Below, piece by piece: positions 2,656 through 48,135 of a DNA stretch of 64,000 bases. This DNA comes from an uncultured Campylobacter sp. (GTDB lineage: Bacteria; Campylobacterota; Campylobacteria; Campylobacterales; Campylobacteraceae). The position numbers were made by a program, and so were the translations under genes. Location: NCBI RefSeq assembly GCF_900539505.1, contig NZ_UQCL01000002.1; one strand, given 5' to 3'. Every line of letters starts with the position of its first letter. The first letter of the stretch is position 1. Under the pieces are notes generated by a model. It was given only the letters and a program-made list of their open reading frames with translations. It had not been told where the DNA came from and made no database searches.

Positions 2656-3144
2656 ATGCTTAAGGCGGAGATTGTTTATAAATTTGTGCTCATCGTGTTG
2701 CTAGGCTGCGCGCTTTGCATTTTGGGCTTTTCGGGCGCCTACTTTGCGCGCGGCGAATACGACGAGGCGTGGATGAGCCTGCATAAGATCGCGGGATTCG
2801 GTCTGCTTTGCGTCGCGATCTTGCATATGATCACAAGGCGAAAGAAGCTCGTAAAGCTCTGGGGCGAGTTTTTGGACGTGGTTTTGAGCCGCAAAAATCC
2901 CGGTTTTTGTAATATGGATCGCATCATCGGCGTGATCGAGCCTTATAATATCAGAGAGATCGCTGATAAAATGGGCTTTAGTGCGGACGAGCTCGCTAAG
3001 ATTTTGAAATCAAACGGTATCAAGCTTGTAAGCGTAGATCAGAACCTACGCGAGCTTGCGAAGCTCAACGACGAAAAAATTTTCTTCATCTTGGTGCTTT
3101 TGATCGAGGCGAAATTTGGCAAAGCGGGCGAATGCAAGGTCTAA
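2656..3144 (+). CDS. hypothetical small membrane protein with two N-terminal TM helices
   Basis: The ATG at 2656 is preceded by AAGGAG at 2645–2650. The listed ORF start at 2596 is a GTG with no RBS. N-terminus is hydrophobic (VLIVLLGCALCILGF, GFGLLCVAILHMI). No recognisable catalytic motif. Confidence 0.5.
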   Translation: MLKAEIVYKFVLIVLLGCALCILGFSGAYFARGEYDEAWMSLHKIAGFGLLCVAILHMITRRKKLVKLWGEFLDVVLSRKNPGFCNMDRIIGVIEPYNIREIADKMGFSADELAKILKSNGIKLVSVDQNLRELAKLNDEKIFFILVLLIEAKFGKAGECKV

Positions 3145-3400
3145 ATTTTAAAATTCCGGCTAGATTCGCTTCGCAAATTTACCGTTTTGAAAAGCAAGCG
3201 GCGCCAAGGAGTCTAAATTTAAAACCGAAATTTTACCGCGCCACGTAAAATACTCAAGATCAAAATTTCATCCAATTTCCGCCAAAATTTTAAAAAATCT
3301 ATCTTTAATCTTTGAAATTTATTATTATTTAATCAAGAGAAATTATAATATAGCATTTGCAAATCATTCGCAAAATTCTAATTTTGAATAGGGGAGAGTG

Positions 3401-7449: not shown

Positions 7450-8079
7450 TTGCTTAAAAAATTAATCTTTTGTTTATTGCCGCTATTTGCGACTGCTAGC
7501 TGGGAAGAGGTCGCCGTAAAGGGACTAGACGTGATGCTTAGTGCGGGCGCGGGCGATAGCGAAAATTTCAAAAGCTCGCTAAGCACCCTGATCGAGCGTG
7601 CCGCAAATGAATACGAACGCACTGGCGTGCAGGATTACGAGCTCGATCTGCCTAGCTACATTACCGAGCGTGCGGGCAAAAAGAGCGTCGCCGTGCAGAA
7701 TATGCAAAGACTGGCGAGCAAGAAGCTAAGTCTTGCTGTAGAGCCGATCAAAAAGCTCGTACTCGCTAAAATAAAAGATATGTCCGAAGCCGATACCAAG
7801 GCAGTAATGAGCGGCGAGGTGCTATTTAGCCACTATCTGCGCACCAACGCCTTTGATGAAATTTACGAAATCATTCGCCCTTTGGCACGCGAACTAGGAG
7901 CCGACGCGAGCTTTGCTAAAAGCTTTAAAAGTGCCGTTGGACGCAACCCTGGAGACGATTTTAGTAGCGAATTTAGCAGCGCTCTCATCAACGAGAGCTT
8001 TGATTTTTTAAGCAAAAACGAAAGGGAGTTTCGCAAAAACTCGGGCGCGATTTTAAACGCGATAAAGACGGTCAGATAG
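7450..8079 (+). CDS. hypothetical secreted protein (TTG start)
   Basis: Signal-peptide-like N-terminus MLKKLIFCLLPLFATASWEE. Helical, coding-like composition. No family recognised. Confidence 0.45.
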   Translation: MLKKLIFCLLPLFATASWEEVAVKGLDVMLSAGAGDSENFKSSLSTLIERAANEYERTGVQDYELDLPSYITERAGKKSVAVQNMQRLASKKLSLAVEPIKKLVLAKIKDMSEADTKAVMSGEVLFSHYLRTNAFDEIYEIIRPLARELGADASFAKSFKSAVGRNPGDDFSSEFSSALINESFDFLSKNEREFRKNSGAILNAIKTVR

Positions 8080-8706
8080 GCGCGCGACGGCACTAAGATC
8101 TCGGCGAAATTTTACTTTAAATTTATGAAAAATTCTATCTTGGAGCCTGCGGAAAATTTTAATTCAAAACCCGCTTTAAATTTCATCTCAAATCAGACGT
8201 GCGAGCGCGCGAAAAACACAGCGCCCGGCGGTAAGGTAAATTTCGCTCCAGCTTCTCGCTTCAAAAGAAATTTCGAATTTAAAGATGCGACTGCCGAGTT
8301 AAATTTTATGAGCGTGCGAAATTTAAAATTTTATCCCGCTTCGGCCGGTTTCGCCGCGCGCAATAGTGCCTCTGTCGGTTTTGCCGTGCACAATCTCGTC
8401 GCGCTTTATTCCGCTCCGCGCGTCAGAAATATTGAAAGAAAATCCGCTTTACATTTCGCGGCTCTTGCGCTAAATTTAAAGTCCGCGCAGGATATGAGCC
8501 GCACCGAAAATAAAGCTTTAAATTCCGCAAAAGTCTCCGTAATAAATCCTTGCGAAAATTTCGCGAGAAATTTCAAACGAAATTTTATATTAAATTTTGC
8601 GGAAAATTTCACTCATAGCGGCGCAAATAGCGCGAGTCCGTTAAGTCGTGCAAGCGTCGTAGACGAGCTAAATTTAAGCCCCGCAAAAAGCCTTGCCACA
8701 GCTCAT

Positions 8707-9885
8707 ATGCGACGCTCAAAGAAAAATTTTATCGAGACCCTTGCAAATGATCCAGCCTCCGCTAGCGCGCCGCAGCCGCAGAGGTCTAACTATGGCGCCG
8801 CGCTAAGCCACGGTGCTCCGCAAAATTCTAATACTACACAGAATTTTAACTCCGCAAAAAATTTAAATTCTACGCAAAGCTCGAATTCCGCGCAGAGTTT
8901 CGGGCAAAATTCCAATTCCACGCAAAACCATGCGCAAAATCCCGTTCCGCCTAGCAGGCTGTGGGATCTGGGGCTGCTTTTCGTAGCGATCGTTTGGGGA
9001 TGCACTTTCGTGCCTGTTCAGCGCGCGCTGCATAGCGGCGACGTTTTTAGCTTTTTGTTTTGGCGCTTTTTGGCGGCGAGCATTTTTACCTACCTCGCCT
9101 GCCTGCGCTTCGGCGTCAAATTTGACCGCGGCACGATAGGGCGGGGCGTGTTTTGCGGGCTGATGCTGTTTTGCGATTTTTCCTGCCAGACCATAGCGCT
9201 TGATTATGCGCTCTCCTCGACGGTGGCGTTCATTTTGGGGCTAAACGTCGTTATCGTGCCCTTTTTGATGCTTGCGTTTTTCGGTAAAAAGGTCGGTGCG
9301 AGCGCCTTTGGCGGCGCAGTCGTGGCGCTTTTGGGGCTCTATTTTTTAAGTGGAGCAAGCGCGGTGGGATTTGGCATAGGCGAGCGGTTGACGCTCGTTT
9401 CGGCATTTGCATACGCGCTTCACATCGTATTTACCGGCGTCTGCGCGCGCAAAAGCAATCTCTACGGCTTTGTGATCGTGCAGTTTATCTGCGTTTGCGT
9501 CTGCGCGCTGATCGCGGCAGTTTTCACTCCGCATGTGCAGTTTGAAGGCGAGATAAGGGTGATTGGAAATTTAATCTTTTCGCTGAACTTTGATTTCGTT
9601 TTTGCGCTGGTTTTGACCTCGATCTTTGCCACCGTTGCGGCGTTTGTGATCCAAACAATGGCGCAAAACCGCGGCGTAAGCGAGATAAAAACGGTGCTGA
9701 TTTTCGCGCTAGAGCCCGTAAGCGCGGGCATTATGGGGTATACCTTCGGCGAGAAGCTAAGCGCGCTTCAAATTTTAGGCGCGGCGCTGATACTCGCAGG
9801 CATCCTGCTTAGCGAGCTGGGCGGGCTTTTAGGCGCGAAGTTTGCTAAAAATCGAGCTTGCGAAAAAGCAGACCGAGGCGACTAG
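8707..9885 (+). CDS. EamA/DMT family transporter. The ORF is open from the ATG at 8125, giving an optional ~195-aa N/S/Q/F-rich low-complexity N-terminal extension
   Basis: The C-terminal ~300 aa has two EamA-type repeats (LLFVAIVWGCTFVPVQ…; …LIFALEPVSAGIMGYTFGEKLS) and 10 TM helices. The upstream 8125–8706 is AAATTT-repeat DNA read in frame (NFNSAKNLNSTQSSNS…). The true start is undetermined. Confidence 0.65.
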   Translation: MRRSKKNFIETLANDPASASAPQPQRSNYGAALSHGAPQNSNTTQNFNSAKNLNSTQSSNSAQSFGQNSNSTQNHAQNPVPPSRLWDLGLLFVAIVWGCTFVPVQRALHSGDVFSFLFWRFLAASIFTYLACLRFGVKFDRGTIGRGVFCGLMLFCDFSCQTIALDYALSSTVAFILGLNVVIVPFLMLAFFGKKVGASAFGGAVVALLGLYFLSGASAVGFGIGERLTLVSAFAYALHIVFTGVCARKSNLYGFVIVQFICVCVCALIAAVFTPHVQFEGEIRVIGNLIFSLNFDFVFALVLTSIFATVAAFVIQTMAQNRGVSEIKTVLIFALEPVSAGIMGYTFGEKLSALQILGAALILAGILLSELGGLLGAKFAKNRACEKADRGD

Positions 9886-21371: not shown

Positions 21372-22466
21372 TTGGAGTTAAATTTGGATATCGACAGAGC
21401 GTTAGAGGAGCTGGCAAAAAAGCAGCAGCAGTGCAAGATAAAATTTCTAAAACCGCTGATTTTATTGCTATGCATCGCGGTTTTTTCCATCGGCTGGTTT
21501 ATCCACGGCTTGATCCAAAACGAATACTCCTCCGCCGTGCTGATGTCCGCGATGATCCCGATAATTGCGGTAAGCTGCGTATGGGGGATTTTTGATGATT
21601 CCATCGCCAAGTGGGAGTACAATGCCTTTTACAAAGACGCCTTCATCCGCGCCATCATTTCAGATATCGATCCCGCCTTTAGATACGAGCCGCAAAGCGG
21701 CATAGACGAAGAAGAGTTCCGCAAAACAGGCATCTATCCGAACAATGAATTCGTAGCCGAGGATCAGATAGACGGCGTGTATAAAGGGGTGAAATTTAGC
21801 CTAAGCGAGGCGATAAAAATCTATGAAACGCGCGAGTCTATGGAGCTTGTAAGGCTATCTCAAAGGGCTAAAAGCGATCTTTCTGCGGCTTTTTTGCTGT
21901 CGGCGATCGCGCTTTGGAACGCTTGGAGGCTCGGCGAATACGTGCAGGCCTTTAGCGGCTCGGTGTTGGTGTGCGAGTTTTATAAGAAATTTAAGGGGCG
22001 GACCATCATCGCGGATCGCTCGCCAGGCACAAAATTTTTAGGCGATCAGGAGCTGATGGACGATGTGATTTTCGGCGAGGAATTTCGCGTGTTCGCAAGC
22101 GATAAGATCGAGGCGCGGTATCTTTTGACGCCTAGCCTTATGGAGCGTCTCGGGGCTTTGAAGCTTAAGCTTGCACCTAAGATCGCTCTTAGCGCGGCGT
22201 TTATGGACGGAAAATTTTATCTATTTTTAAACGGCGCGAAAAACCGCTTCGAAGCCGCGCTGTTTTCGCCGCGCACTACGCTAAAAGACGCCGAGCGGAT
22301 AAAGGCCGAAGTTTTGCAGCTTCTTGGTATCATTGACGAGCTGCGTTTGAATGAGGAGGTTTTTGGCGGCGCAAGCGAGAGCGGCGAGTCCGCAAATAGC
22401 CCGCCACCCGGCGGCAAAGAGCTGCAGAGATTGCGCGATAAAGGCTTGAGCTCGCGCGATCGCTGA
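21372..22466 (+). CDS. DUF3137-like membrane protein (paralogue of 46975..47949)
   Basis: TTG start. N-terminal charged segment plus TM helix. C-terminal block EFRVFASDKIEARYLLTPSLMERLGALKLK…FYLFL is shared with the second copy (FSVYASDTVAVMYVLTPALMEKILSLKQ…IYIAI). The DUF3137 assignment is from memory of that family's pattern. Confidence 0.4.
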   Translation: MELNLDIDRALEELAKKQQQCKIKFLKPLILLLCIAVFSIGWFIHGLIQNEYSSAVLMSAMIPIIAVSCVWGIFDDSIAKWEYNAFYKDAFIRAIISDIDPAFRYEPQSGIDEEEFRKTGIYPNNEFVAEDQIDGVYKGVKFSLSEAIKIYETRESMELVRLSQRAKSDLSAAFLLSAIALWNAWRLGEYVQAFSGSVLVCEFYKKFKGRTIIADRSPGTKFLGDQELMDDVIFGEEFRVFASDKIEARYLLTPSLMERLGALKLKLAPKIALSAAFMDGKFYLFLNGAKNRFEAALFSPRTTLKDAERIKAEVLQLLGIIDELRLNEEVFGGASESGESANSPPPGGKELQRLRDKGLSSRDR

Positions 22467-25811: not shown

Positions 25812-26424
25812 TTTATGACGCAAAATTTAGCGCTGGCGGCACGCTTTTATCGCGGAATTCTGTAGCGTGGCAAAGATTTAATTTTGCTTGCTTTTAAAAT
25901 ACGACGCTTGCTAAAAATTTTAAAATTCCGTTTTGCTGGGCGGGAGTAGAAATTTAAGAATTTTAAATTCCACTATGTCTGCGCTAAAGCGCGAAATTTT
26001 AAAATTCCACTCCTTTTTTGTGCTGTTTTGTCAAATGCAATCTCAAAATTTAATCTCATAAAATTTTAAAATTTCATCGCGAGCTTTAAAGCGCTCATAA
26101 AATTTCTCACCCAATTCTGCAGCTTTAAAATTTTGTAAAATTCTGTGGCTTTAAAATTTTGCAAAATTTTAAAAATTTTAAATTCTATCGCTAGGACGCA
26201 GATGAAAACTCTAAAAAAACTCGCGCAAAATCGAAGCAAACAATGAAAAAGCGAATTTATTTGACGACTTTACTTACTATTTAATAATCATTAAAGATAT
26301 AAAAAGCTAAAATTGCTTTTTGCCTGCGGGCGAATTTAATGTCTGCTTGCCATTCGCGCGGGATTTTGAGGTTTCCCGTAGCCGTGGCAATAGTTTTGAA
26401 ATTATTTATGAGAAAGGAAAAAGG

Positions 26425-27234
26425 ATGAAGAAATTTCTCTTAAGTCTGCTTGTCGCAGCTTTAGCTAGTAGTGCGCTTTGCGCAAGGTCGCTCTCCGAGA
26501 TCAAAAGTAGCGGAGTGCTTAGAATAGGCGTTTATGACGCGCAACCGCCGTTTAGCAAGATAGAAGACGGCGTGCATCAGGGCTTTGAGGTCGATATGGC
26601 AAATGCTATCGCTAAAGATATGCTTCCATCGGGCGGAAAGGTGGAGTTTACCTCCGTGCTTGCAAATCAGCGTATAAAATTCCTACAAGAAGATAAGGTG
26701 GACGCAGTTATCGCAACTTTTACCGTAACTCCGGAGCGCGAGAAGCAGGTAGATTTTACGACCCCGTATTTTAGCGTCAATATAGGCATTTTAACCCGCG
26801 TCGAAGATAAGATTAAATCTTTAAACGAATTGCAAGATAAAACTATTTTAGTTCTTAGCGGCGGTACTGCAGAAACATACTTTGAAAAGCAAGGCTATAA
26901 TATCGCCAGATGCGACAACGCAAACGCTTGCTATAAGGCGCTAAAAGCTGGACAGGGCGACGGGTATGCCGATGATAACCTAGTCGTGCTGGCTTATCCG
27001 GTATTAGATAAAAAGGTAGAAGTAAATATCAAAAATTTAGGTACTTCGGATTTCTTAGCCATCGGCGTGAAAAAGGGCAATTCGGAGCTTTTGGATTTTC
27101 TAAACGGCGAGCTAATCAAGCTAAGCAAAGAGGGCTTTTTCAAAAATTCGTTCGATAATTTCATCGAGCCTTACTACAAAGGAACTGCAGAGAAAAAGTA
27201 TTTCTTGCTGGACGATCTTTATAGCTTGCTGTAA
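26425..27234 (+). CDS. periplasmic solute-binding protein, amino-acid ABC type (SBP family 3; PEB1/CjaA-like), copy 1 of 4
   Basis: Signal peptide. GVLRIGVYDAQPPFS… and …DAVIATFTVTPEREKQVDFTTPYF… are characteristic of SBP_bac_3. Conserved Cys pair ARCDNANAC. RBS AAGGAAAAAGG. Confidence 0.8.
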   Translation: MKKFLLSLLVAALASSALCARSLSEIKSSGVLRIGVYDAQPPFSKIEDGVHQGFEVDMANAIAKDMLPSGGKVEFTSVLANQRIKFLQEDKVDAVIATFTVTPEREKQVDFTTPYFSVNIGILTRVEDKIKSLNELQDKTILVLSGGTAETYFEKQGYNIARCDNANACYKALKAGQGDGYADDNLVVLAYPVLDKKVEVNIKNLGTSDFLAIGVKKGNSELLDFLNGELIKLSKEGFFKNSFDNFIEPYYKGTAEKKYFLLDDLYSLL

Positions 27235-27254
27235 TTTTTAAAAAGGGGGACGCT

Positions 27255-28058
27255 ATGAAAAAGATAATCCTAGCATTGATGCTGGCTGCGTGTTCGCTTT
27301 TTAGCAACACTTTAGCTCAAATCAAAGAAAAAGGGGTTATTCGAATCGGTATAGATGGCTCGTCTCCGCCGTTTAGCGTCGCTAAAGCCGGCGAATATAG
27401 CGGGTTTGAGATACTTTTAATCGAAGGGCTTGTTAAAGAAATTTTCGGCGATAAAGGCGGCAAGATAGAATATGTCGTAACTTTGGGCGATGATCGTATA
27501 AAAGCGGTGCAGGACAACAGAGTCGATTTAGATATCGCGCTTATCTCGGTTACGAAAGAGCGTGAGAAGCTGGTAGATTTCTCCGATCCATACTTTAGCG
27601 TAAATATCGGCGTGCTAACCCGTAGCGAAGATAATATCAGAAAAGTCTCCGATCTAAACGGAAAGACTATACTAGCGCAGCCCGGCACCACCGTGTTTGA
27701 TTACTTTACGAAACAGGGCTATAACGTAGCGCCGTGCGATAGTGCAAGCGAATGCTTTAACGCTCTAAAATCGGGCAAGGGCGACGGATACGCAGACGAT
27801 AATCTGCTTGTGTTCGCTTACGCCGTAGTAGACCGCAAAGTTGAAGTAAATATTAAGAATTTAGGCTCGACGGACTTCCTAGCCATCGCGGTGCAAAAAG
27901 GTAATACTGAACTACTTAACGCGGTAAATGCGGGACTGATCAATTTAAGCAAAAAGGGCTTTTTTACAAAAATTTTTGATGAGAGTATCGAGCCTTTTTA
28001 TAAAGGTACCGTCGATAAAAAGTATTTCTTGCTGGACGATCTTTACAGCCTGTTTTAA
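27255..28058 (+). CDS. periplasmic solute-binding protein (SBP family 3), copy 2 of 4
   Basis: Paralogue of copy 1 and highly similar to copy 3. Cys pair APCDSASEC. Motif GKGDGYADDN. Confidence 0.8.
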   Translation: MKKIILALMLAACSLFSNTLAQIKEKGVIRIGIDGSSPPFSVAKAGEYSGFEILLIEGLVKEIFGDKGGKIEYVVTLGDDRIKAVQDNRVDLDIALISVTKEREKLVDFSDPYFSVNIGVLTRSEDNIRKVSDLNGKTILAQPGTTVFDYFTKQGYNVAPCDSASECFNALKSGKGDGYADDNLLVFAYAVVDRKVEVNIKNLGSTDFLAIAVQKGNTELLNAVNAGLINLSKKGFFTKIFDESIEPFYKGTVDKKYFLLDDLYSLF

Positions 28059-28123
28059 TTTAAAATGGCGATGGATGGAATTCTATTCGCTGGCAAAATT
28101 TTAGTAAAATTTAAAGGAATTTT

Positions 28124-28927
28124 ATGAAAAAGATTATATTTACGTTGTTAATCGCTTCGTGTTCGTTATTTGCCAACTCTTTAGCGCAGATCAAAGAAAA
28201 AGGGCTCATTCGCATTGGGGTAGACGGCTCACTGCCGCCACTTAGCGTCTCTGAGGACGGAAGATATAGCGGTTTTGAAATTTCGCTTATCGAAGAGCTC
28301 GTGAAAGAAATTTTCGGCGATAAGGGCGGCAAAATCGAATATGTCGTAACTCTAGGCAATGATCGTATCACAGCCGTGCAAGATAACAAGGTCGATTTGG
28401 ATATCGCGGCGATTACGGTTACGAAAGAGCGCGAGAAACTAGTGGATTTTTCAAACCCTTACTTTAGCGTAAATATCGGCGTACTAACCCGTAGCGATGA
28501 CAATATCAAGACAATAAGCGACCTGCAGGATAAAGAAATTTTAGCAGAGCCCGGCACTACGGCTTTTGATTATTTTAATAAGGAAGGCTTTAAAGTTATC
28601 TCATGCGCCAGTTCGAGCGAATGCTTCCGCGCGCTAAAATCCGGTCGCGGCAGCGGCTATGCAGACGATAATATGGTAGTTTTGGGTTATTCGGTTGTAG
28701 ATCGCAAGGTAGAGGTAAATATCAAGAATTTAGGTACGTCGGACTTTTTAGCTATCGCGGTGCAAAAAGGCAACGATGACTTGCTAAACGCCTTAAACGA
28801 CGGGCTTGTCAAGCTCAGCAAAAATGGCTTTTTCAAGAAAATTTTTAACGACAGCATCGATCCTTTTTACAAGGGAAAGGCTGAGAAAAAATATTTCTTG
28901 TTAGATGATCTTTATAAAATGTTTTAA
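28124..28927 (+). CDS. periplasmic solute-binding protein (SBP family 3), copy 3 of 4
   Basis: Paralogue. Cys pair ISCASSSEC. Motif GRGSGYADDN. Confidence 0.8.
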   Translation: MKKIIFTLLIASCSLFANSLAQIKEKGLIRIGVDGSLPPLSVSEDGRYSGFEISLIEELVKEIFGDKGGKIEYVVTLGNDRITAVQDNKVDLDIAAITVTKEREKLVDFSNPYFSVNIGVLTRSDDNIKTISDLQDKEILAEPGTTAFDYFNKEGFKVISCASSSECFRALKSGRGSGYADDNMVVLGYSVVDRKVEVNIKNLGTSDFLAIAVQKGNDDLLNALNDGLVKLSKNGFFKKIFNDSIDPFYKGKAEKKYFLLDDLYKMF

Positions 28928-28942
28928 TTCAAAGGACAAAAT

Positions 28943-29746
28943 ATGAAAAAAATTCTACTAAGTATTTTGCTGGGTGCTGGCGCGCTTTGCGCTAATTCCC
29001 TAGCAGATATCAAGCAAGCAGGCGAAATTCGCATAGGCTTGCAAGATTCCCAGCCTCCGTTTAGCTTCGATGATAACGGCACGCTAAAGGGCTTTGAGGT
29101 TGATTTGGCAAATGAGTTAGTCAAAAATCTATTTGGCAATAAAAAGATCAAAATCGACTTTATCGCCGTAGCATCTAAAGATCGCGTTCCTTCACTGGAG
29201 CAAAACAAAGTAGATCTCATCATATCCAAGCTTACCGTCACAAAAGATCGCGTTCAGAAAGTCGATTTTTCTTACCCGTATTATTCAGTGCAAATTGGCG
29301 TGCTAAGCCGCAAGGACGATAATATTTCAAGAATCGATCAGATCGCGCATAAAAAAATTCTAAGCGTTAAGGGCACAACTGCCGAGGAGCACTTCAAAAA
29401 CGCGGGCTATGAGATTGCGACATGTACCGACGCGAATGAGTGCGTCGCTAGGCTAAAGGCTGGCGAGGGCATAGGCTTTGCCGACGATAATACGGTCGTA
29501 CTCGGATACGCTAGAAACGATGCCGCGCTTGATGCAAAAATCATCAACCTTGGCAAGGTAGATTATATCGCCGTCGCCCTATCTAAGGGCAATACCGAGC
29601 TGCTTGATGCGGTCAATAGCAGCCTGGTAAAAATGTATAAAGCGAAATTTTTCCATAAGGCTTTTGACGAGGATATCAAGCCATACTACGGCGGCAAGAT
29701 CGATAAAAAGCACTTCACGCTCGATGAGGTTTATAGCCTGTTTTAG
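28943..29746 (+). CDS. periplasmic solute-binding protein (SBP family 3), copy 4 of 4 (most divergent)
   Basis: Paralogue. Cys pair ATCTDANEC. Motif GEGIGFADDN. Confidence 0.8.
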   Translation: MKKILLSILLGAGALCANSLADIKQAGEIRIGLQDSQPPFSFDDNGTLKGFEVDLANELVKNLFGNKKIKIDFIAVASKDRVPSLEQNKVDLIISKLTVTKDRVQKVDFSYPYYSVQIGVLSRKDDNISRIDQIAHKKILSVKGTTAEEHFKNAGYEIATCTDANECVARLKAGEGIGFADDNTVVLGYARNDAALDAKIINLGKVDYIAVALSKGNTELLDAVNSSLVKMYKAKFFHKAFDEDIKPYYGGKIDKKHFTLDEVYSLF

Positions 29747-39970: not shown

Positions 39971-41311
39971 ATGGATTATGATATCATCGTAATAGGCTTT
40001 GGCAAAGCAGGCAAAACCCTTGCCGCAAAATCCGCCGCACTGGGCAAAAAGGTCGCTCTCATCGAGCGCTCGCCGCAGATGTACGGCGGCACCTGCATCA
40101 ACGTAGGCTGCATCCCGACCAAGCGACTGGTTACCGCGAGCAAGGAAGCTGGCTTCGTAAATTTCAGCGTGCTCGGAGAGTATTTCGTGCTGAGCATGCA
40201 GAAAAAGGACGAGCTCGTAGAGGCGCTGAGGGCGAAAAATTTAGCGATGCTAAAAGGTAACCCGAATATCGACATAATCGACGGCGAGGGCTCATTTACG
40301 AGCGCGAATTCCGTGCGCGTGCTAAGTCCCGATGGACAAACGCGTGAAATTTCAGCAGAAACGATCGTCGTAAATACGGGCTCGAGGGAGGTCGAACCGA
40401 GCTTTGAGGTAAACTCGCAGATCGCTTATAGTAGCGAAGAAATTTTAAATTTAAAGATCCTGCCGAAGCATCTAGTAATCATCGGCGGCGGATTTATCGG
40501 GCTTGAGTTTGCCTCGATGTTTGCGGGATTCGGTTCGAAAGTTAGCGTGCTTATGCGATCGAAATTTATGAAAAACGAGGATGAGGACGTGGCTGCTAGC
40601 GTCAAATCCGCTCTAGAGGCCCAAGGCGTGGAGATTATCGAGGGCTGCGAGTTTTTGAGCTTAAAGGGCGGGGAGCTAAAATTTAACCTCGCGGGCGAGA
40701 GCAAGGCGGTCGCGGCGGACGCGTTTTTATACGCCCTTGGGCGTCGCGCGAATACGAATGATCTAAATTTAGCCGCTGCGGGAGTGCAGACGGACGTATA
40801 CGGCAATATCATCACGAATGAGCATCTGCAAAGCTCCGCTGCGAGCATCTACGCGGCAGGCGACGTGCGCGGCGGCGAGATGTTTACCTACACTAGCCTG
40901 GATGATTTTAGGATCATTTTTAGCGCGCTTTTCGGAGACGGTGCGCGCACTACGAAAAATCGCACGCCGCATGCAAGCGTGCTGTTTACCCGCACGCCGC
41001 TAGCTCGCATCGGCCTTAGCGAGAGGCAGGCAAGAGAGAGTGGGCGCGAGATCAAGGTGCTAAAGCTTTCGATGGCGGCGGTGCCGGGCGCCAAGGTCGT
41101 AGCGCACGACGAGGGAATGATGAAAGCAGTCGTGGACGCAGCTAGCGGCGAAATTTTAGGCGCGGCGCTTCACTGCGTAAACGCGCACGAGATCGTTAAT
41201 GAGTTGGCGATCGCCATGGCGCTGGGCGCGAAGGCGGACTTTTTCAAAAACCAAATTTTTACGCATCCTAGCATTAGCGAGGCGCTAAACGATCTTTTCG
41301 GACAGTTTTGA
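39971..41311 (+). CDS. class I FAD-dependent pyridine nucleotide-disulfide oxidoreductase (glutathione reductase / dihydrolipoamide dehydrogenase-like)
   Basis: FAD-binding DIIVIGFGKAGKTLA. Redox-active disulfide GGTCINVGCIPTK. Second Rossmann fold LVIIGGGFIGLEFASMF. C-terminal dimerisation domain with THPSISE. Confidence 0.75.
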   Translation: MDYDIIVIGFGKAGKTLAAKSAALGKKVALIERSPQMYGGTCINVGCIPTKRLVTASKEAGFVNFSVLGEYFVLSMQKKDELVEALRAKNLAMLKGNPNIDIIDGEGSFTSANSVRVLSPDGQTREISAETIVVNTGSREVEPSFEVNSQIAYSSEEILNLKILPKHLVIIGGGFIGLEFASMFAGFGSKVSVLMRSKFMKNEDEDVAASVKSALEAQGVEIIEGCEFLSLKGGELKFNLAGESKAVAADAFLYALGRRANTNDLNLAAAGVQTDVYGNIITNEHLQSSAASIYAAGDVRGGEMFTYTSLDDFRIIFSALFGDGARTTKNRTPHASVLFTRTPLARIGLSERQARESGREIKVLKLSMAAVPGAKVVAHDEGMMKAVVDAASGEILGAALHCVNAHEIVNELAIAMALGAKADFFKNQIFTHPSISEALNDLFGQF

Positions 41312-41515: not shown

Positions 41516-42073
41516 TTAATTGATAAAATATTCTCGTTTAGGAATAGCAAGATCGCAATCTATTCGGCACTCGGTAAGAGTATGCGGATAAAATTTCTTC
41601 TCGCAGTTTATACAGGCGAAAACGATTTCGTCCGTCGCTTCATTCAACATAACTCTATAATCGCTAGGCGACCATTGCGGGCATTCGCACGCCAAGTCCA
41701 AATCCACGCTAACTACCAAGCTGTCAAATACAATCGAGTTTAATTCCTCGTAGACTAGTCTTAAGCTCTTTTGATCTTTCAGCGCTCTAATTTTATTTAT
41801 CAAGCGGTATTTGTCCGATTTGATAATCTTTGCGCCAAAGAGATCCTTCGCTTTTCCGTCGCCGTAAATCGATAGCTCGGTCGGATAATATTTAAAATTT
41901 AACTTTAACAGCTCGTCCAAGCCGCAGCCGTCGTATTCTTTCATAAGAAATAAAATTTTATTTTCCATAAACCAAGCCGCTATGCTATAGCATACTTGCT
42001 CGGGATTAAAAGGATGTAGATTTAAAATTCTATTTTCTAACGATAAACACAAATTTCTAATTTTGGGCTGCAT
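41516..42073 (-). CDS. hypothetical protein with a Cys-cluster C-terminus
   Basis: 185 aa, low GC. Motif CECPQW…CINCEKKF…TEC…C. No family recognised. Confidence 0.4.
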   Translation of the reverse strand: MQPKIRNLCLSLENRILNLHPFNPEQVCYSIAAWFMENKILFLMKEYDGCGLDELLKLNFKYYPTELSIYGDGKAKDLFGAKIIKSDKYRLINKIRALKDQKSLRLVYEELNSIVFDSLVVSVDLDLACECPQWSPSDYRVMLNEATDEIVFACINCEKKFYPHTLTECRIDCDLAIPKREYFIN

Positions 42074-42180
42074 TATTTCATCCTTTATTTCTACCTATAT
42101 CGACGATCTCGACAAAATTTTAGCCATCTTTTCTTTATACTTAATTTTATATTTATAATTTCACAAATTTAATACCTTTA

Positions 42181-42546
42181 TTAATCCCCAAAGATTAAAT
42201 AGGCTAAATTTCTACTCAAATTTCCATACGCAACTATCCAATATTCTCGTATGATGTTTTTTATTTGCAAGTTATCGTCCAGAAAGTCTGCAAATATTTT
42301 AACCCTATCTTTGTCTACTGTGCCTAGCTCTTCATCCTCTTTCTCAAACGAAGCGACAATTAAATGCGACAGAGCAATCTTGTCTTGGAAATTTAATGTC
42401 TTGTCTTCTAGTAAATTTAGCATTGACGTAATTTTACCGATATCTGCTAATTCTAGCTCCCAATCTTGCTCATTTCCCGTCGAATCTAATCCCAAAAGCT
42501 TATTTAATTTTATCGCGCTTTCTTTTCTTACGAAATAATCGGTCAT
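42181..42546 (-). CDS. hypothetical small acidic protein
   Basis: Start taken at MTDYF (RBS AAAGGATAATAAA). The listed ORF extends to 42630 and then overlaps its neighbour. Acidic, Trp-containing (EYWIVAYGN). Confidence 0.35.
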   Translation of the reverse strand: MTDYFVRKESAIKLNKLLGLDSTGNEQDWELELADIGKITSMLNLLEDKTLNFQDKIALSHLIVASFEKEDEELGTVDKDRVKIFADFLDDNLQIKNIIREYWIVAYGNLSRNLAYLIFGD

Positions 42547-42581
42547 TTTATTATCCTTTATATATGTTTTAACCGCGATAC

Positions 42582-43064
42582 TCAGCCGACCGCGCCATCT
42601 AGCAGCTTTTTGGAATTTTGCAAAACCCATACGAAATTTTCGAGCTCTACGCAGTCTTTTAATTCAAATCCAAAATTTAACAAACCTACCGATAGGGCGT
42701 CGCCATCTTTTATGACATGCGCTATTAGATTGCCTTTATGTTCTATACTCACTTTATTCTCATATCTTGTAAATTTAAAGATATTTTTCGAGCATCTTCC
42801 GTTTCTTTTTGAAAATTTCTCAAACTGCTCCGCAAAATTCGGTCTTTGATTCCCATCTTTTAGCCATAATCCCCCAGCATATAGCGCCCATATAAGCTCG
42901 TAAAAATTGATATTATGCCGAGTCTCGGCAGCAGCAACTAAAAGCTTATTTGTTTCATGGTTGATCTGTATTAAAGGCTCTCTGTCCATATGCCAAATCT
43001 CGGCTACTACTTTTTCTCTATCCGGCACGGAGGCAATTAAAAATTCAAATTCATTTTCTATCAT
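42582..43064 (-). CDS. hypothetical protein
   Basis: 160 aa, low GC, no motif recognised. A 37-codon ORF (about 43095–43208) lies immediately upstream. Confidence 0.4.
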   Translation of the reverse strand: MIENEFEFLIASVPDREKVVAEIWHMDREPLIQINHETNKLLVAAAETRHNINFYELIWALYAGGLWLKDGNQRPNFAEQFEKFSKRNGRCSKNIFKFTRYENKVSIEHKGNLIAHVIKDGDALSVGLLNFGFELKDCVELENFVWVLQNSKKLLDGAVG

Positions 43065-43242
43065 ATCAAAATCCTATTTTTTGTTTTTTACTGCCTAATT
43101 TAATTTGAATGCTCTATCGTTCGAGCCTAAATCATATTTACCCCATTCTTTTATGACATCTTGAGCTATACTTTTTACGCGGAATTCCTGCCCTACTAAA
43201 ATAAGCATCTATTTTCTCCATAATTCTATTAAATCATCATAT

Positions 43243-43476
43243 CTAAATCAAATTTCTATCCATATCAAATATTTTGGGATAGTTTTTATAGTTTATTTCG
43301 ATATAATCGCCCTTTTTAAATTTTTCAGCTTGCGTCGATAAAACCTCTAAAACTATAAATTCAAATCCAAAAAATAGCTCATCCCACCCCTCTTCTCCTT
43401 CTTCAAGATCTGGATCGCAGCATCCTTCAAAATCGTCATAAAATCTGACTTTGTATATTATTTTCATCAAACTCAA
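43243..43476 (-). CDS. hypothetical small acidic protein
   Basis: 77 aa, acidic (DPDLEEGEEGWDELFF). Confidence 0.3.
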   Translation of the reverse strand: MSLMKIIYKVRFYDDFEGCCDPDLEEGEEGWDELFFGFEFIVLEVLSTQAEKFKKGDYIEINYKNYPKIFDMDRNLI

Positions 43477-43813
43477 TGATAAACTCTCTTTTGTTTAGTT
43501 CATATATATTTCTCGCCAAATTTTTCATAATATCGCGTTCGTTGTCCGAAAATCTTAACAAAAAATTCTCGTAAATTTCTCTTCCGCTTAGCATTGTGCT
43601 CCTTTTTGCAGTTTAGCAAAGATTTGTCCGCTTGAGCCTTTTAATCGGCTTCTTGGCTATTGTATTTCGCACTCTCGATCTTTGCAAGCGTTAATTTCGC
43701 TAAAGGATTGATAAACTTAGCGATACAATATTTATTATCGCATGTAATCACGCTTTGGCGCTCATCTACTTTCATTGCGTTGGAGCAATTCGGGCACATT
43801 ACATAGCCTTCGC

Positions 43814-44122
43814 CTAAATCAACGCCAATCGGAAAATTTCTTCTGCCTTTTGCCTTATCTCGCCTTCTTTAAAAAATACGTTAGGAGCCTTTTTAAAATC
43901 TTCATCAAACTCAGAAAATCTACTCGTCATCATATCCAATTCTTTTAATGCCTGCTCTTCCGCTTTATTGGTTGAGCAATATTGCGATTCCAAATCATAC
44001 ATCTTATAAAATTCATCGCAAAACAGCTCTATATCGCACCAATCGGATAGAAGTCCAGCTATTAAATAATACAACTCTTCATTTTGCTGCATATTTCGCC
44101 TCATTTTAAATTTTATCGCCAT
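43814..44122 (-). CDS. hypothetical small acidic protein
   Basis: 102 aa. Overlaps the upstream gene by 17 bp, so the two are probably co-translated. Acidic, Cys-containing (SDWCDIELFCDEFY). Confidence 0.4.
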   Translation of the reverse strand: MAIKFKMRRNMQQNEELYYLIAGLLSDWCDIELFCDEFYKMYDLESQYCSTNKAEEQALKELDMMTSRFSEFDEDFKKAPNVFFKEGEIRQKAEEIFRLALI

Positions 44123-44945
44123 TTTTATTATTTACGTCTTTTAGAATTGCATGCAATAGCTCGTTTTCGGTTGCATTTTTCTCATCTAATATTGATACGC
44201 CCATAGTTGTTGGAGTAATCTTGGATAAAAATAGATTTACAAGCTCTGTTTTTTCATCGATTCCGTATGACAATGTAACGATATCCAATAAATCGTGCCG
44301 CTCTATAAAACTATCAAAGATATCTTCTAATCGCGACGCTTTCTCTGCGTAGAAGAATATCCACTTTACGCCTATAAGAAAATCCGTTGTGATATTACTA
44401 AAGATATCTATCTTATCCATAAAGTGCGATCCGATAAGCAAATATATATCCGAGCCGTTTTTGGACAAAGAGCCAAGCTCGTAAATAGAACCGATATTTT
44501 TGTAATTTATCATTTTATTTCTCGCTCCCTTGTTTTTTATCATCTTTAGCCACTCTTTTTCAAATTTAAAATATCTTTCAAGCTTTTTATTCTTTTCCGC
44601 TTGATTCCACTTTTCTATCTCGGCATAATCTTGCAGCTCGCCTCCGAACTTAGGGCAAACACTCCTATCTTTAACGTCCGAGAAATTATAAAATTTAAAA
44701 CACCCTTTGCAGTGCATAAATTTAGGATAATATTTTATGCTTTTTTCGGAGCGAAATGCGAGATATAAAAAGAAAGCGCACGCCGCAAAGCATAAAATTC
44801 CTATGATGATACGCAGATGCACGCTTTCAAATTTTACCGATGCCATAAAATAGGGTTTTATATCAACTCTCCCCAATAGGGCGGCCGCCAGTCCCCATGC
44901 GAAAAAAGCAAAAAAGCCGATTAATGCAAAAATTCTATTTAGCAT
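44106..44945 (-). CDS. membrane-anchored zinc-ribbon protein with an unknown ~170-aa cytoplasmic domain
   Basis: Two N-terminal TM helices, then AFRSEKSIKYYPKFMHCKGCFKFYNFSDVKDRSVCPKFGGEL (CxxC…CPxxG). The rest has no recognised motif. Confidence 0.45.
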   Translation of the reverse strand: MLNRIFALIGFFAFFAWGLAAALLGRVDIKPYFMASVKFESVHLRIIIGILCFAACAFFLYLAFRSEKSIKYYPKFMHCKGCFKFYNFSDVKDRSVCPKFGGELQDYAEIEKWNQAEKNKKLERYFKFEKEWLKMIKNKGARNKMINYKNIGSIYELGSLSKNGSDIYLLIGSHFMDKIDIFSNITTDFLIGVKWIFFYAEKASRLEDIFDSFIERHDLLDIVTLSYGIDEKTELVNLFLSKITPTTMGVSILDEKNATENELLHAILKDVNNKNGDKI

Positions 44946-44974
44946 TTTTATATTCCTCTATAACAAATCAAATT

Positions 44975-45247
44975 TCATCGCTTTTTAAATTTACGCTTTT
45001 TGGGCTTTGGGGGTTTAACGCCTTGATGAGGAGCGTTTCTTCGCCAGTAGTCGCCGTCATTATACTCCGTAAGCTTTTTGCCGCAGTCCGGGCAAATTTG
45101 ATCCGTATCTTTGACGTCCTCGTATCGGTAAAATTTGCCGCAGTCTGCACACCACATATACTCCGGGTATCTTTTTATGCTCTTTTCAGAGCGGAAGGCG
45201 AAATAAAAGCCGTAAATACCTATTACTATAAACGCGATTGCGGGCAA
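44975..45247 (-). CDS. truncated paralogue of the TM–zinc-ribbon module, with a basic tail (TTG start)
   Basis: AFRSEKSIKRYPEYMWCADCGKFYRYEDVKDTDQICPDCGKKL matches the N-terminal module of 44106..44945. Ends KPPKPKKRKFKKR. Confidence 0.35.
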   Translation of the reverse strand: MPAIAFIVIGIYGFYFAFRSEKSIKRYPEYMWCADCGKFYRYEDVKDTDQICPDCGKKLTEYNDGDYWRRNAPHQGVKPPKPKKRKFKKR

Positions 45248-45484
45248 TATCCATAAACTACCCGCATCATCAAATTTAATATATTTCTCGCCTATTTTTA
45301 CATGTTTATGTACCGTAAAATAAGAAGCACATTGTGCCTGTCAAAAAAGCGGCAATTCTATCTAGCATTTTGCTGCTCCTTTTCGTTATGATCTGCTTCA
45401 TTCATAGCGTTTTGTGCCATACCGTCTGATCCTTAAATTTGGGCTTTATGAGATAAATTTTTATTTTTGATAGTTCGAAATTTC

Positions 45485-46003
45485 TCATATAACAAACCTG
45501 CAATATTGTAAAATCAACGTATAATCTTCGCTATAAAATTTTACCCTATTTTTTCTATTGTAGATACTCATGCTTAGCAGATATTTGGCGAAATTTATAT
45601 AATCCTCCGTATTAGGAAAATAAAATGTAACGCTTTGGTAGAATGTTTTAAAATCCAGCTCAAATTTATACCTGCCCATATCGTCCGCTATGCAGCACTC
45701 CGCTTCGTCTATTTTGATAAATTCCTTTATATCTATACATAATTGAGCGCTATTTTTTGCAAATCGCGCTCCTCCCACCCAATATTCATAAGGGAAAAGC
45801 TCTAGGTATGAGACCCTTTCATTATACGATGATGTTAAAATGTTTTTTGCGAAATAATACATAGCCAAATTCGTAGTAAAACCTAAGACCACAAGCTTTT
45901 TGTCTTCTAGAATTTTAATATCTAATTTATGATACTCATGCCCCATAAGCTCCTCATCGATAGTTAGAGGATCGTCTTTTATATAAATTTTATTCGGTAG
46001 CAC
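45485..46003 (-). CDS. hypothetical protein (GTG start with strong RBS)
   Basis: AAAAGGAGAATAAATCA-GTG. 172 aa, aromatic-rich, no family recognised. A 30-codon ORF at about 46034–46126 is ATGA-coupled to the upstream 86-aa ORF. Confidence 0.4.
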   Translation of the reverse strand: MLPNKIYIKDDPLTIDEELMGHEYHKLDIKILEDKKLVVLGFTTNLAMYYFAKNILTSSYNERVSYLELFPYEYWVGGARFAKNSAQLCIDIKEFIKIDEAECCIADDMGRYKFELDFKTFYQSVTFYFPNTEDYINFAKYLLSMSIYNRKNRVKFYSEDYTLILQYCRFVI

Positions 46004-46122: not shown

Positions 46123-46383
46123 TCATATTTTCTCCAATATAAGTTCCGTCGAGCCCTCTTCAAGCGAATTATACTCATCCAGATGTATATGCGAATGTTT
46201 CGGCGCGGAATCTTGCGCTAAAGTAAGCAAATGCCTGGCAAGAGATATAAGCCCGCTTTTATTTGCCCTTATAGTAACTTCGTTTCCTAGAGTATTGACG
46301 GAGATCGCGAAGTCCTTTTCCCATTGTAGCTGCAGTCCCTTTTCTGCGCAATAGTCTAAGGTTTTTATAACATACTGCCCCAT
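46123..46383 (-). CDS. hypothetical small protein
   Basis: 86 aa. First ORF after the tRNA on the island strand. Confidence 0.3.
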   Translation of the reverse strand: MGQYVIKTLDYCAEKGLQLQWEKDFAISVNTLGNEVTIRANKSGLISLARHLLTLAQDSAPKHSHIHLDEYNSLEEGSTELILEKI

Positions 46384-46572: not shown

Positions 46573-46648
46573 TGGTGGTCCCGATTGGACTCGAACCAAC
46601 GACTTCCACCATGTCAAGGTGACACTCTACCAACTGAGTTACGGGGCC
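46573..46648 (-). tRNA. tRNA-Val (anticodon GAC), CCA encoded
   Basis: Reverse complement is GGCCCCGTAACTCAGTTGGTAGAGTGTCACCTTGACATGGTGGAAGTCGTTGGTTCGAGTCCAATCGGGACCACCA. D, anticodon and T arms all pair. T-loop TTCGAGT. Anticodon loop TTGACAT. One C·A mismatch in the acceptor stem. Confidence 0.85.
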
Positions 46649-46974: not shown

Positions 46975-47949
46975 TTAAGACGTCCAAATTTTCTCATTCA
47001 GCTTTAGAATTTTTACGATTTGCAGCATCGCGTCTAGATCCGCCTTGATATCCTTTGCGATGCGGGCATTGAGTATCGGCTGATCCAAGCTCGGCTCGAA
47101 ACTATCGGCGCCGCGAGATATCGCGATATAAATTTTATTTTGCTTAAAGCTCAGCGATATATCCGATTTTACGAGCTGTTTAAGAGATAAAATTTTCTCC
47201 ATCAGCGCGGGCGTCAGGACATACATAACCGCCACCGTATCGCTTGCGTAAACCGAGAAATTTGCATTGAAATCCGCATTATCTATCGGGATTTTGCGGT
47301 CGCTCCATAGCCCGCGTGGCAGCCCCGAAGGCGGCAAATCTATGCCTGCGGGTGCTGCCGCGTCCGAGAAAACAAAAACATCGGAGTGGATTTTTTTATT
47401 AAAATTTGCCATGAAAAAGGGTCCTTCGAAAAATGTGGCGTAATTATTTTTAAAAATAAATGAAATTCCCGTACCGATTTCTTTTTCCAGCCTTATATCG
47501 CAAAACATAAAATCTACTCCGCCTGCGTTCGCGCAAACCAGATCATCCGCGCGAAATCTATCAAATCCGTCAAATATCTCGCTTTGCCTTACCTCTTTTT
47601 CCTGAAAAAGCGCGCCCATTTTATACGAAAAGCCCAGACTCTCGATATAAGGCTTGAGATAAAGCTCTTTGTAGCGCATCAAAAACCGCTCGGTTTTGCG
47701 CTCAAAAATCCACTCGTAAAATTCGTCCCTCGTACTGATTATTGCTAAAATAGACATGACCAAAAAAGATAAGCTTTCTATACCAAGATCGAGTTTGGGA
47801 AAATCAAGAAAGATGATTATCAATGCGAGCGCAAGCATCGGACCGAAAACCGCAAACGCTACGAGATAACTTAAAATTTTCCAAAGCTTGCGACTTTTCT
47901 TGAGCCGTTTGCGCTGCTTTTCTAAATCTATGACGGTTTTAATATCCAC
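46975..47949 (-). CDS. DUF3137-like membrane protein (second paralogue)
   Basis: Shares N-terminal architecture and C-terminal block with 21372..22466. Start probably the GTG at 47949 (RBS AGAGG); the listed start is a TTG at 47955. Confidence 0.4.
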   Translation of the reverse strand: MDIKTVIDLEKQRKRLKKSRKLWKILSYLVAFAVFGPMLALALIIIFLDFPKLDLGIESLSFLVMSILAIISTRDEFYEWIFERKTERFLMRYKELYLKPYIESLGFSYKMGALFQEKEVRQSEIFDGFDRFRADDLVCANAGGVDFMFCDIRLEKEIGTGISFIFKNNYATFFEGPFFMANFNKKIHSDVFVFSDAAAPAGIDLPPSGLPRGLWSDRKIPIDNADFNANFSVYASDTVAVMYVLTPALMEKILSLKQLVKSDISLSFKQNKIYIAISRGADSFEPSLDQPILNARIAKDIKADLDAMLQIVKILKLNEKIWTS

Positions 47950-48135
47950 GCCCAACCTCTATTTATTAAATTTAATGGCGCGAACTCGCGGCGCAACATA
48001 AATTTACGCCAGATACGGCGTAATAGGCGCACGTTGTTTAGAGCCGCTAAATTTTATGGCTACTTGCGCGAGCCGCGCGCAGTGAAATTTGCCGCCAAGC
48101 TCAAATTGCAGCATAAATTCCGTGATTAAAAAAAC

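Follow-up and report, generated by a model that had tools for sequence, protein, structure and literature searches.

Damaged orphan members of a probable membrane immunity family in a decaying gene array of an uncultured Campylobacter

Introduction

Contig NZ_UQCL01000002.1 of an uncultured Campylobacter sp. (RefSeq assembly GCF_900539505.1) contains, within the 64,000-nucleotide (nt) stretch analyzed here (the window), a 279-amino-acid (aa) open reading frame (ORF) in which two hydrophobic segments are followed by a zinc-ribbon-like motif and then by a long C-terminal part with no recognizable motif. A 90-aa ORF next to it carries the same motif. An earlier note on this DNA, made from the letters alone, described the pair as a full protein and a truncated copy, and read the longer one as a membrane-anchored sensor or anchor fused to an effector domain of ~170 aa. 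Is this architecture a property of a protein family, or of one strain, and what do such proteins do? We report that the 279-aa ORF is two neighboring genes joined by a one-base deletion, and that the two related copies are tandem paralogues, both damaged in this strain. Taken as a whole, the evidence makes it likely that they are orphan members of a membrane immunity family located in a decaying array of immunity genes.

Imm32 is an immunity family for the toxins Ntox12, Ntox37 and Ntox7, and heterogeneous polyimmunity loci have been described for polymorphic toxin systems (Zhang et al. 2012, PMC3482391). No immunity family combining transmembrane (TM) segments with a zinc ribbon came up in a text search of that paper. 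The TpsB and FHA-like genes of Campylobacter have long been noted, mainly as putative adhesins (PMC539331).

Results

The two ORFs exist as listed in the earlier note and are alike, with 33 of 71 residues identical (46%; BLASTP E=7e-19), and both carry AFRSEKSIK.YP..M.C..C.KFY...DVKD...CP after the TM segments. The 279-aa ORF has two hydrophobic segments, at about residues 5-25 and 42-64, both on the N-terminal side of this motif, and none on its C-terminal side. The two best phmmer matches to the 279-aa ORF cover different parts of it: P0001 (142 aa) matches residues 1-139 at 88% identity, and P0002 (128 aa) matches residues 145-271 at 70% identity and starts MLNYKNI, where the window has M145-INYKNI. 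P0002 and P0005 are homologues of the C-terminal part, hereafter C135, and both are stand-alone proteins; we refer to the N-terminal part as copy A and to the related gene that includes the 90-aa ORF as copy B. The phmmer search was exhaustive against 1.84 billion cluster representatives and returned 26 related clusters only (50% identity clusters). A word-indexed protein search gave nothing for the 279-aa ORF, although the identical and the 88%-identical proteins are in the collection, and its negatives need care.

A scan for related loci, using a 7-sequence alignment as the query and one genome per species, recovered 74 loci, all from metagenome-assembled genomes (MAGs) labeled 'uncultured Campylobacter sp.' The dxr genes of these loci are 96-99% identical to the dxr gene of the window, and therefore the loci belong to one species complex. 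Copy A is unfused in all 43 loci with a full copy, and the window alone reads through. Its length is nearly always 141-143 aa (the exceptions are one of 156 aa, some that are shorter, and one cut by a contig end), and the copy in the window is 88-92% identical to the 141-143-aa proteins of its relatives. C135 is a separate gene, in another frame and 13 nt downstream, in 16 of the 16 loci that carry it, and in the window it retains its own ribosome-binding site (RBS), AAGGGAG-N-ATG, with the ATG at 44513. What had been taken for an effector domain on a TM-zinc-ribbon anchor is thus, for ~135 aa of it, an independent gene with its own RBS and start codon.

The origin of the read-through is visible in the DNA alignment, where the relatives have GATAAAAAAACAAGG and the window has GAT-AAAAAACAAGG, a run of seven A residues (A7) reduced to six (A6) at 44533-44538. 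With one A lost, the normal stop TAA (44515-44517) is out of frame, and therefore translation enters C135, giving the 279-aa ORF. The tail of copy A reads ..MIKKQGSEK and a stop in relatives, and ..MIKNKGARNKMINYK.. in the window. A second change in copy A, TGC to TTC (C100F), removes the fourth zinc ligand, leaving CPKFGG here as against CP(K/R)C(G/E)G in 43 of 43 relatives. Thirteen public contigs encode the exact 279-aa protein, and their island DNA is identical save for one gap in one contig; therefore, one strain carries the lesion, and a one-off read error does not explain it. Phase variation at the A run was considered and rejected, given that all seven aligned relatives have A7 (or A6G) and that A6 is seen only in this strain.

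The other way to view the locus is to take the continuous ORF at face value, as a membrane-anchored zinc-ribbon sensor or anchor that carries a swappable effector of ~170 aa, with the downstream 102-aa ORF as the antidote. The ORF is indeed continuous in this strain and in the 13 identical contigs, and the downstream ORF has a weak colicin-immunity-like match, described below. However, the fusion is unique to the strain, with copy A stopping in 43 of 43 relatives and C135 separate in 16 of 16, and the fused copy lacks one of the zinc ligands as well. Furthermore, no family member was found with any other C-terminal domain, and family members elsewhere sit after toxin modules and not at the position of a toxin. 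We consider this view very improbable. The swapping of C-terminal domains that it anticipated was not seen; what swaps is the TM module and the module formed by the zinc ribbon and tail. With the 279-aa ORF understood as copy A joined to C135, the latter is a candidate soluble immunity protein and a clade-restricted ORFan, for which Pfam, NCBIfam, PADLOC and PHROGs contain no family and for which the AlphaFold2 (AF2) model has a predicted local distance difference test score (pLDDT) of 43, too low for use.

The labels full and truncated turn out to be the wrong way round, since the native length is 134-143 aa and the 279-aa ORF is the product of fusion through a 1-nt deletion. The 90-aa copy does end in the basic tail KPPKPKKRKFKKR that the earlier note pointed out, and it is not truncated at the C terminus, but has instead lost its N terminus. 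An ATG at 45368, behind a good RBS (AAGGAG), opens MLDRIAAFLTGTMCFLFYGT followed by a stop in another frame upstream of the 90-aa ORF (three-frame translation), and in relatives copy B is a single 134-aa ORF reading MLDRIA.FLTGIMCFLYLINFTVHKHVKIGEKYIKFDDAG... Alignment of the DNA reveals that 11 nt (ATATCTTATAA) have been deleted from the window between 45322 and 45321. The N-terminal frame of copy B is kept in 52 of 56 relatives, in a 134-aa form with two TM segments or a 190-aa form with four. The 90-aa ORF is a broken tandem paralogue of copy A. As a separate observation, the 190-aa allele (L010, L012, L016, L025 and others; position about 7560-7940), with its four predicted TM segments, sets an unrelated N-terminal module (MSTRIGLILLGAFFVFESILG...) on the same zinc ribbon and tail, which is further evidence of module shuffling.

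Downstream of the 279-aa ORF, the earlier note listed a 102-aa ORF (43814..44122) overlapping it by 17 bp, and a small zinc-ribbon ORF with the motif CPNC...CDNKYC (43641-43799). The second of these is present, but it is not a gene of its own: in locus L062 the two ORFs form one 175-aa gene (8606-9133), hereafter p175, and the DNA alignment shows that p175 of the window has been split by a 77-nt deletion between 13-nt direct repeats. The overlap holds for the longest possible ORF only, whereas the p175 start, MQQNEE at ATG 44092, leaves a 13-nt gap; gene callers on the identical public contigs use the same start, for a 92-aa product. Intact p175 from L062 gives a weak match to PF09204 (Colicin_immun; E=0.0021, 19 bits against a cutoff of 22, profile positions 6-84 of 88), and p175 has no sequence match in the PDB. 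With three independent lesions within 1.6 kb, selection on the array may be relaxed in this strain.

Given that the copies in the window are damaged, the properties of the family are best seen in the relatives. The native unit of ~134-143 aa consists of a two-TM hairpin, a basic juxtamembrane stretch (AFRSEKSIK.YP), a four-cysteine (C4) zinc ribbon, and a charged or basic tail. An alignment of 15 sequences has C79, C82 and C97 invariant and C100 in 14 of 15, absent only in the window copy. The 279-aa ORF therefore fails as a C4 zinc ribbon (CxxC...CPKF, with F100) and retains three of the four ligands, whereas the family passes, with CP.CG in the 90-aa remnant and in 43 of 43 relatives. Conservation of the Cys ligands in homologues, a point that the earlier note had set beforehand, is accordingly seen at the level of the family. 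The AF2 model of copy A on the 15-sequence alignment (pLDDT 79) has two helices (2-24 and 42-64), followed by a ribbon of three strands (76-106) and then by a long helix (107-139). Both termini are probably cytoplasmic (an N-in hairpin), because a strongly basic stretch follows TM2 and the zinc ribbon needs a reducing compartment.

Pairwise Nei-Gojobori comparisons among relatives gave ratios of nonsynonymous to synonymous substitution (dN/dS) of 0.19 for copy A (42 relatives), 0.29 for copy B, 0.24 for C135, 0.14 for p172 (another array gene), and 0.21 for Imm32, with 0.05 for dxr as the comparison gene. These values, the conserved Cys residues and the AF2 topology indicate that the array genes are real genes. 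The family is so far seen only in Campylobacter MAGs and unassigned metagenome contigs. Copy A belongs to no family in Pfam, NCBIfam, PADLOC or PHROGs, and copy B gives only sub-threshold generic zinc-ribbon matches. Foldseek comparison of the copy A model with the PDB gave nothing at E<0.001, and a PDB sequence profile search returned zinc-finger noise only.

A further feature of copy A is that the point right after EKEWLK (codon ~137) is a recombination site (L022, L024, L027, L045). At least four tails follow it, IKKQGSEK, RVSHDKK(NN), RVQNRRDEE and SSEKSDKINR, each with its own downstream gene set, one of which includes lipoprotein-like 109-122-aa ORFs and a DUF7683 protein (PF24731, 2.6e-9).

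The function of the family is best approached through more distant relatives, outside the clade of the window. In seven of seven informative contexts (L085/L086, L087 twice, L089, L090, L093 and L094), a family member lies directly 3' of an ORF for a toxin C-terminal (CT) module, at a spacing of -13 to +22 nt; the contigs of P0013 (L084) and P0006 (L095) are too short to judge. Each upstream ORF encodes a variable toxin module, of the kind found at the C terminus of CdiA/TpsA-like hemagglutinin-repeat proteins. In L090, this is a CdiA/TpsA-like exoprotein of at least 1001 aa that matches Fil_haemagg_2 (7.7e-8, 33 bits, above the cutoff) and, just under the 26.6-bit cutoff, DUF637 (1.3e-5, 25.4 bits). 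The next ORF starts as a two-TM protein and then repeats the C-terminal half of the toxin with the junction ..AETNNRQLH.DEEKWLDENV.. and another short tail, ..WGEDFIISYAPSGIPEASIFGIGGWIASDPREQIKD.., and P0012 starts 13 nt before the stop of the orphan-module ORF. Further downstream lie orphan modules, Tox-HNH-EHHH among them, and each is accompanied by a small gene of its own. L085/L086 has the same tail type as L090 (WG(E/K)DF..SYAP.GIPEA..GGWIASDPREQIKD), followed 8 nt later by P0023; CT modules of this type lie at L090 5400-5671 and L085 360-632. There are two pairs in L087, the first a 293-aa protein with a 145-aa family member 3 nt on, and the second a 133-aa orphan tail with the shared GKNALQ junction that overlaps the start of a 115-aa member. 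L089, L093 (CT type WFGNIVSNPKVW..) and L094 have orphan tails followed at 5-22 nt by P0014, P0022 and P0019, respectively.

Comparison of these pairs shows that the type of the family member co-varies with the CT type of the toxin, in a small sample. P0012 and P0023, which follow the same tail type, are 60% identical in the TM module and 44% in the ribbon, whereas P0012 and P0014, which follow different tail types, are 31% identical in the TM module and 74% in the ribbon. In addition, a P0022-like TM module comes after a 'type B' tail in both L090 and L093. The TM module thus tracks the toxin tail, and the TM and ribbon/tail modules shuffle independently. The short CT modules have no Pfam family. 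Small multi-TM proteins lacking the zinc ribbon are also found at immunity-like positions (L087 3735-4193 and 4627-4971; L090 3077-3400), with basic tails and a juxtamembrane motif, ALRPEKF, that is related to that of the family, and may be a sister group of it.

Genes that always adjoin toxin modules and encode two TM segments with a highly charged or basic C-terminal tail, a layout resembling class II holins, could conceivably be holin-like, lysis/release or toxin-export accessory factors. However, there is one gene per CT module, even after orphan CT fragments with no export apparatus, and the TM module co-varies with CT type. No phage genes lie nearby, copy A has no PHROG match below 0.07, and orphan copies remain in arrays alongside bona fide immunity genes such as Imm32. 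An accessory role of this kind is unlikely. We hold similarly little expectation that copies A and B are a lineage-specific pair of membrane proteins with a housekeeping or regulatory task, such as a zinc-dependent tethered regulator, located in a recombination hot spot. They do occupy the same position beside tRNA-Val in dozens of genomes under purifying selection, and a cytoplasmic zinc ribbon with a basic tail could bind nucleic acid. Nevertheless, this strain has lost both copies to inactivation and shows no sign of compensating for them, the family is very small (the 26 clusters) and patchy, and its more distant members are found only in toxin-module contexts (seven of seven).

Loci of the same clade as the window provide links between the array genes and toxins, consistent with an immunity role. 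The order in L045, an arrangement known from a single MAG contig, is a CdiA-like gene (at least 1211 aa, with a ParB-like end), a 135-aa gene, four small genes, Imm32, p172, copy B, copy A, and a ShlB/FhaC-type TpsB (PF03865, 1.9e-72). In L080, p172 is preceded at a distance of 4 nt by an orphan CdiA-like C-terminal module of 695 aa (junction KGANRQLH) and is followed by copy B.

A rearrangement also affects this region. In at least 14 related genomes, a segment of ~41 kb, from the 3' end of copy A to a point beside a TonB-dependent receptor gene (3398-5473), is inverted relative to the window. The positions concerned are ~3142-3152 and 44520-44700 in the window, and L013 8414-8533 and L062 1-8200 in relatives. 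Inverted genomes have a full copy A with the tail RVSHDKK, and an orphan 63-aa fragment ORF (residues 84-140, MRSKFYNFSDVKD...IKKQGSEK) before the C135 cassette, and the two segment ends carry inverted duplicates of ~170 bp of copy A. Insertion of a prophage or integrative element at the 3' end of copy A was considered for the orphan fragments ~43 kb away and rejected, as the event is a chromosomal inversion of ordinary genes.

The setting of the copies in the window is given in Table 1. GC content is 34-35% across the array as opposed to ~50% in the flanks (GC profile), and the minus-strand ORFs run in the order Imm32, p172, 90-aa, 279-aa, 102-aa, two of 52 aa, and then 77, 160, 149 and 185 aa. 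The Pfam gathering score for Imm32 is reached by the neighboring ORF at 46123-46383 and not by the TM-zinc-ribbon proteins. No CdiA-like, toxin-tail or TpsB sequence was detected by tblastn in the 64-kb window. Thus, the two components of a type Vb system, a hemagglutinin-repeat exoprotein and a ShlB/FhaC transporter, are not found here, but both are seen in related loci.

Table 1. Features of the low-GC array and its edges (positions in nt of the window)
Feature	Position	Strand	Evidence or remark
Low-GC block of small ORFs, ~5 kb	between tRNA-Val(GAC) and the pyridine-nucleotide disulfide oxidoreductase gene 39971-41311	minus (all)	
tRNA-Val(GAC)	46573..46648	minus	upstream edge of the low-GC array
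Imm32 family immunity protein, first gene of the array	46123..46383	minus	PF15566, E=3.9e-18, 65.6 bits against a 27-bit cutoff
p172, candidate immunity protein	45485..46003	minus	L080 context; dN/dS 0.14
Copy B, pseudogene here (native 134 aa: two TM, zinc ribbon, basic tail)	44975..45368	minus	three-frame translation, DNA alignment
90-aa ORF, remnant of copy B, TTG start	44975-45247	minus	
Copy A of the TM-hairpin/zinc-ribbon family (native 141-143 aa)	44515..44945	minus	carries C100F and the frameshift
279-aa ORF	44106-44945	minus	copy A and C135 fused
Codon 100, TTC (Phe); TGC (Cys, fourth zinc ligand) in all relatives	44646..44648	minus	
A6 run; A7 or A6G in relatives	44533..44538	minus	DNA alignment
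C135, independent 135-aa gene (ATG 44513)	44106..44513	minus	former 'unknown C-terminal domain'
N-terminal part of p175 (175-aa gene)	43814..44092	minus	
Junction of the 77-nt deletion that splits p175	43827..43839	minus	two 13-nt direct repeats AAATTTT(T/C)CGATT
52-aa 'zinc-ribbon ORF' (CPNC...CDNKYC), C-terminal remnant of p175	43641..43799	minus	
Rest of array: 52-, 77-, 160-, 149- and 185-aa ORFs, no known family	41516..43594	minus	variable cassette set in relatives

The block had also been called a mobile-looking island. Low GC and the position beside tRNA-Val speak for this, though weakly. No ORF of integrase size has a family match, and dozens of genomes across the clade keep the array at the same chromosomal position. 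No repeat of the tRNA 3' end was found at the far boundary, where the best tRNA-derived repeat, of 12-14 nt, is at chance level. A tRNA-integrated mobile island is not supported.

Several other features of the array and window were observed. The last ORF of the array, of 185 aa (41516-42073, minus strand), has a C-terminal Cys cluster, CEC...x26...CINC, a possible zinc-binding module, and no family match. Two DUF3137 membrane proteins (46975-47955, minus; 21372-22466, plus) are ~25% identical, and an extra DUF3137 paralogue (~46% identical) is located between dxr and the array in many relatives. At 26320-29746 (plus) are four tandem paralogous SBP_bac_3 solute-binding proteins (E about 1e-28 to 1e-30; 40% GC). 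Genes for an AraC-type regulator, a TonB-dependent receptor and a PepSY_TM protein come next, and the arrangement looks ordinary.

Discussion

What is the role of the intact family, and why are damaged copies found in this array? Based on gene position and co-variation, its members would be inner-membrane immunity proteins of the CdiI type. Their partners would be the short, Gly-rich, hydrophobic C-terminal toxin modules of CdiA/TpsA-type hemagglutinin-repeat proteins, for which TpsB would be the export partner. The part that matches the toxin type would be the TM hairpin, which presumably binds or blocks a membrane-inserting toxin, and the zinc ribbon and tail would form an interchangeable cytoplasmic module. 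Membrane targeting by the toxin modules and the function of the ribbon are conjecture at this point. As neither a toxin gene nor TpsB is present in the window, we read its low-GC island as an orphan polyimmunity array, whose genes (Imm32, p172, copy B, copy A, C135, p175 and others) may be kept against the toxins of neighbors and are partly decaying here. The suspicion of a polymorphic system voiced in the earlier note was right, but the context puts the family on the immunity side, and not on that of a toxin or sensor. Its observation is thus confirmed in part and its interpretation supported in part, with the side and the architecture to be corrected.

CdiI of E. coli EC93 and the small membrane immunity proteins of microcins and pore-forming colicins are examples of immunity at the inner membrane. 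Like the CdiI proteins of pore-forming or membrane-targeting CdiA-CT toxins, the Campylobacter proteins are small inner-membrane proteins encoded directly after a variable toxin end, with one type per toxin and persistent orphans. They differ in adding a cytoplasmic C4 ribbon and a charged or basic tail that recombine apart from the hairpin, their immunity role is predicted from gene context, and no sequence or fold match was detected. The array resembles polyimmunity loci and orphan cdiA-CT/cdiI arrays in being a low-GC run of small unrelated genes in the same orientation, Imm32 among them, and the orphan toxin fragments of relatives likewise share a junction motif, each with its own small gene. 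In contrast to polyimmunity loci, the window keeps no toxin or toxin fragment, and three of the array genes are broken. The gene order in L045 is like that of Burkholderia-type cdiA-cdiI-(orphans)-cdiB loci (bcpAIOB), but the junction is (K)GANRQL or ETNNRQLH with no match to Pfam PT-VENN, and such a locus is absent from the window. Finally, generic C4 ribbons (TFIIB/TFIIE, HypA, IBR-like) share CxxC-x14-16-CxxC on short beta strands and account for sub-threshold Pfam matches; no such family reaches its gathering score, and a ribbon right after a TM hairpin is atypical for them.

Several points weigh against an immunity role. No toxin gene is immediately adjacent to copy A or B in the window or in any same-clade locus, and therefore the pairing comes from relatives that are 30-50% identical, several of whose contexts are on short metagenome contigs or MAGs. 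No CT type has been matched to the TM module of copy A, and Pfam, NCBIfam, PADLOC and PDB give no match that confirms an immunity fold. Membrane targeting by the CT modules is deduced only from module size, composition and the membrane location of the partner. An immunity role does not account for the zinc ribbon, and some likely relatives (L087 3735-4193 and 4627-4971) are without it. With these points taken into account, we still regard damaged orphan members of a membrane immunity family, one of them fused to its neighbor, as the probable explanation of the locus. Two variants concern the ribbon and the fusion: the strain-specific joining of copy A to C135 could be a functional, membrane-tethered soluble immunity protein, or the ribbon and basic tail could sense toxin insertion and signal to the cytoplasm through nucleic-acid or protein binding, as signaling immunity. 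Even taken together, we find them implausible.

For the window itself, the outcome is a correction, as the striking architecture of the 279-aa ORF is the product of a frameshift. Beyond it lies a family of probable membrane immunity proteins that has no name and no model in Pfam or NCBIfam, although the type of system is well known. If true, this reading would suggest that oral and gut Campylobacter antagonize one another by contact-dependent, membrane-targeting means. It would also offer mechanistic work a compact toxin/immunity pair, made up of a module of ~60 aa and a ~140-aa protein.

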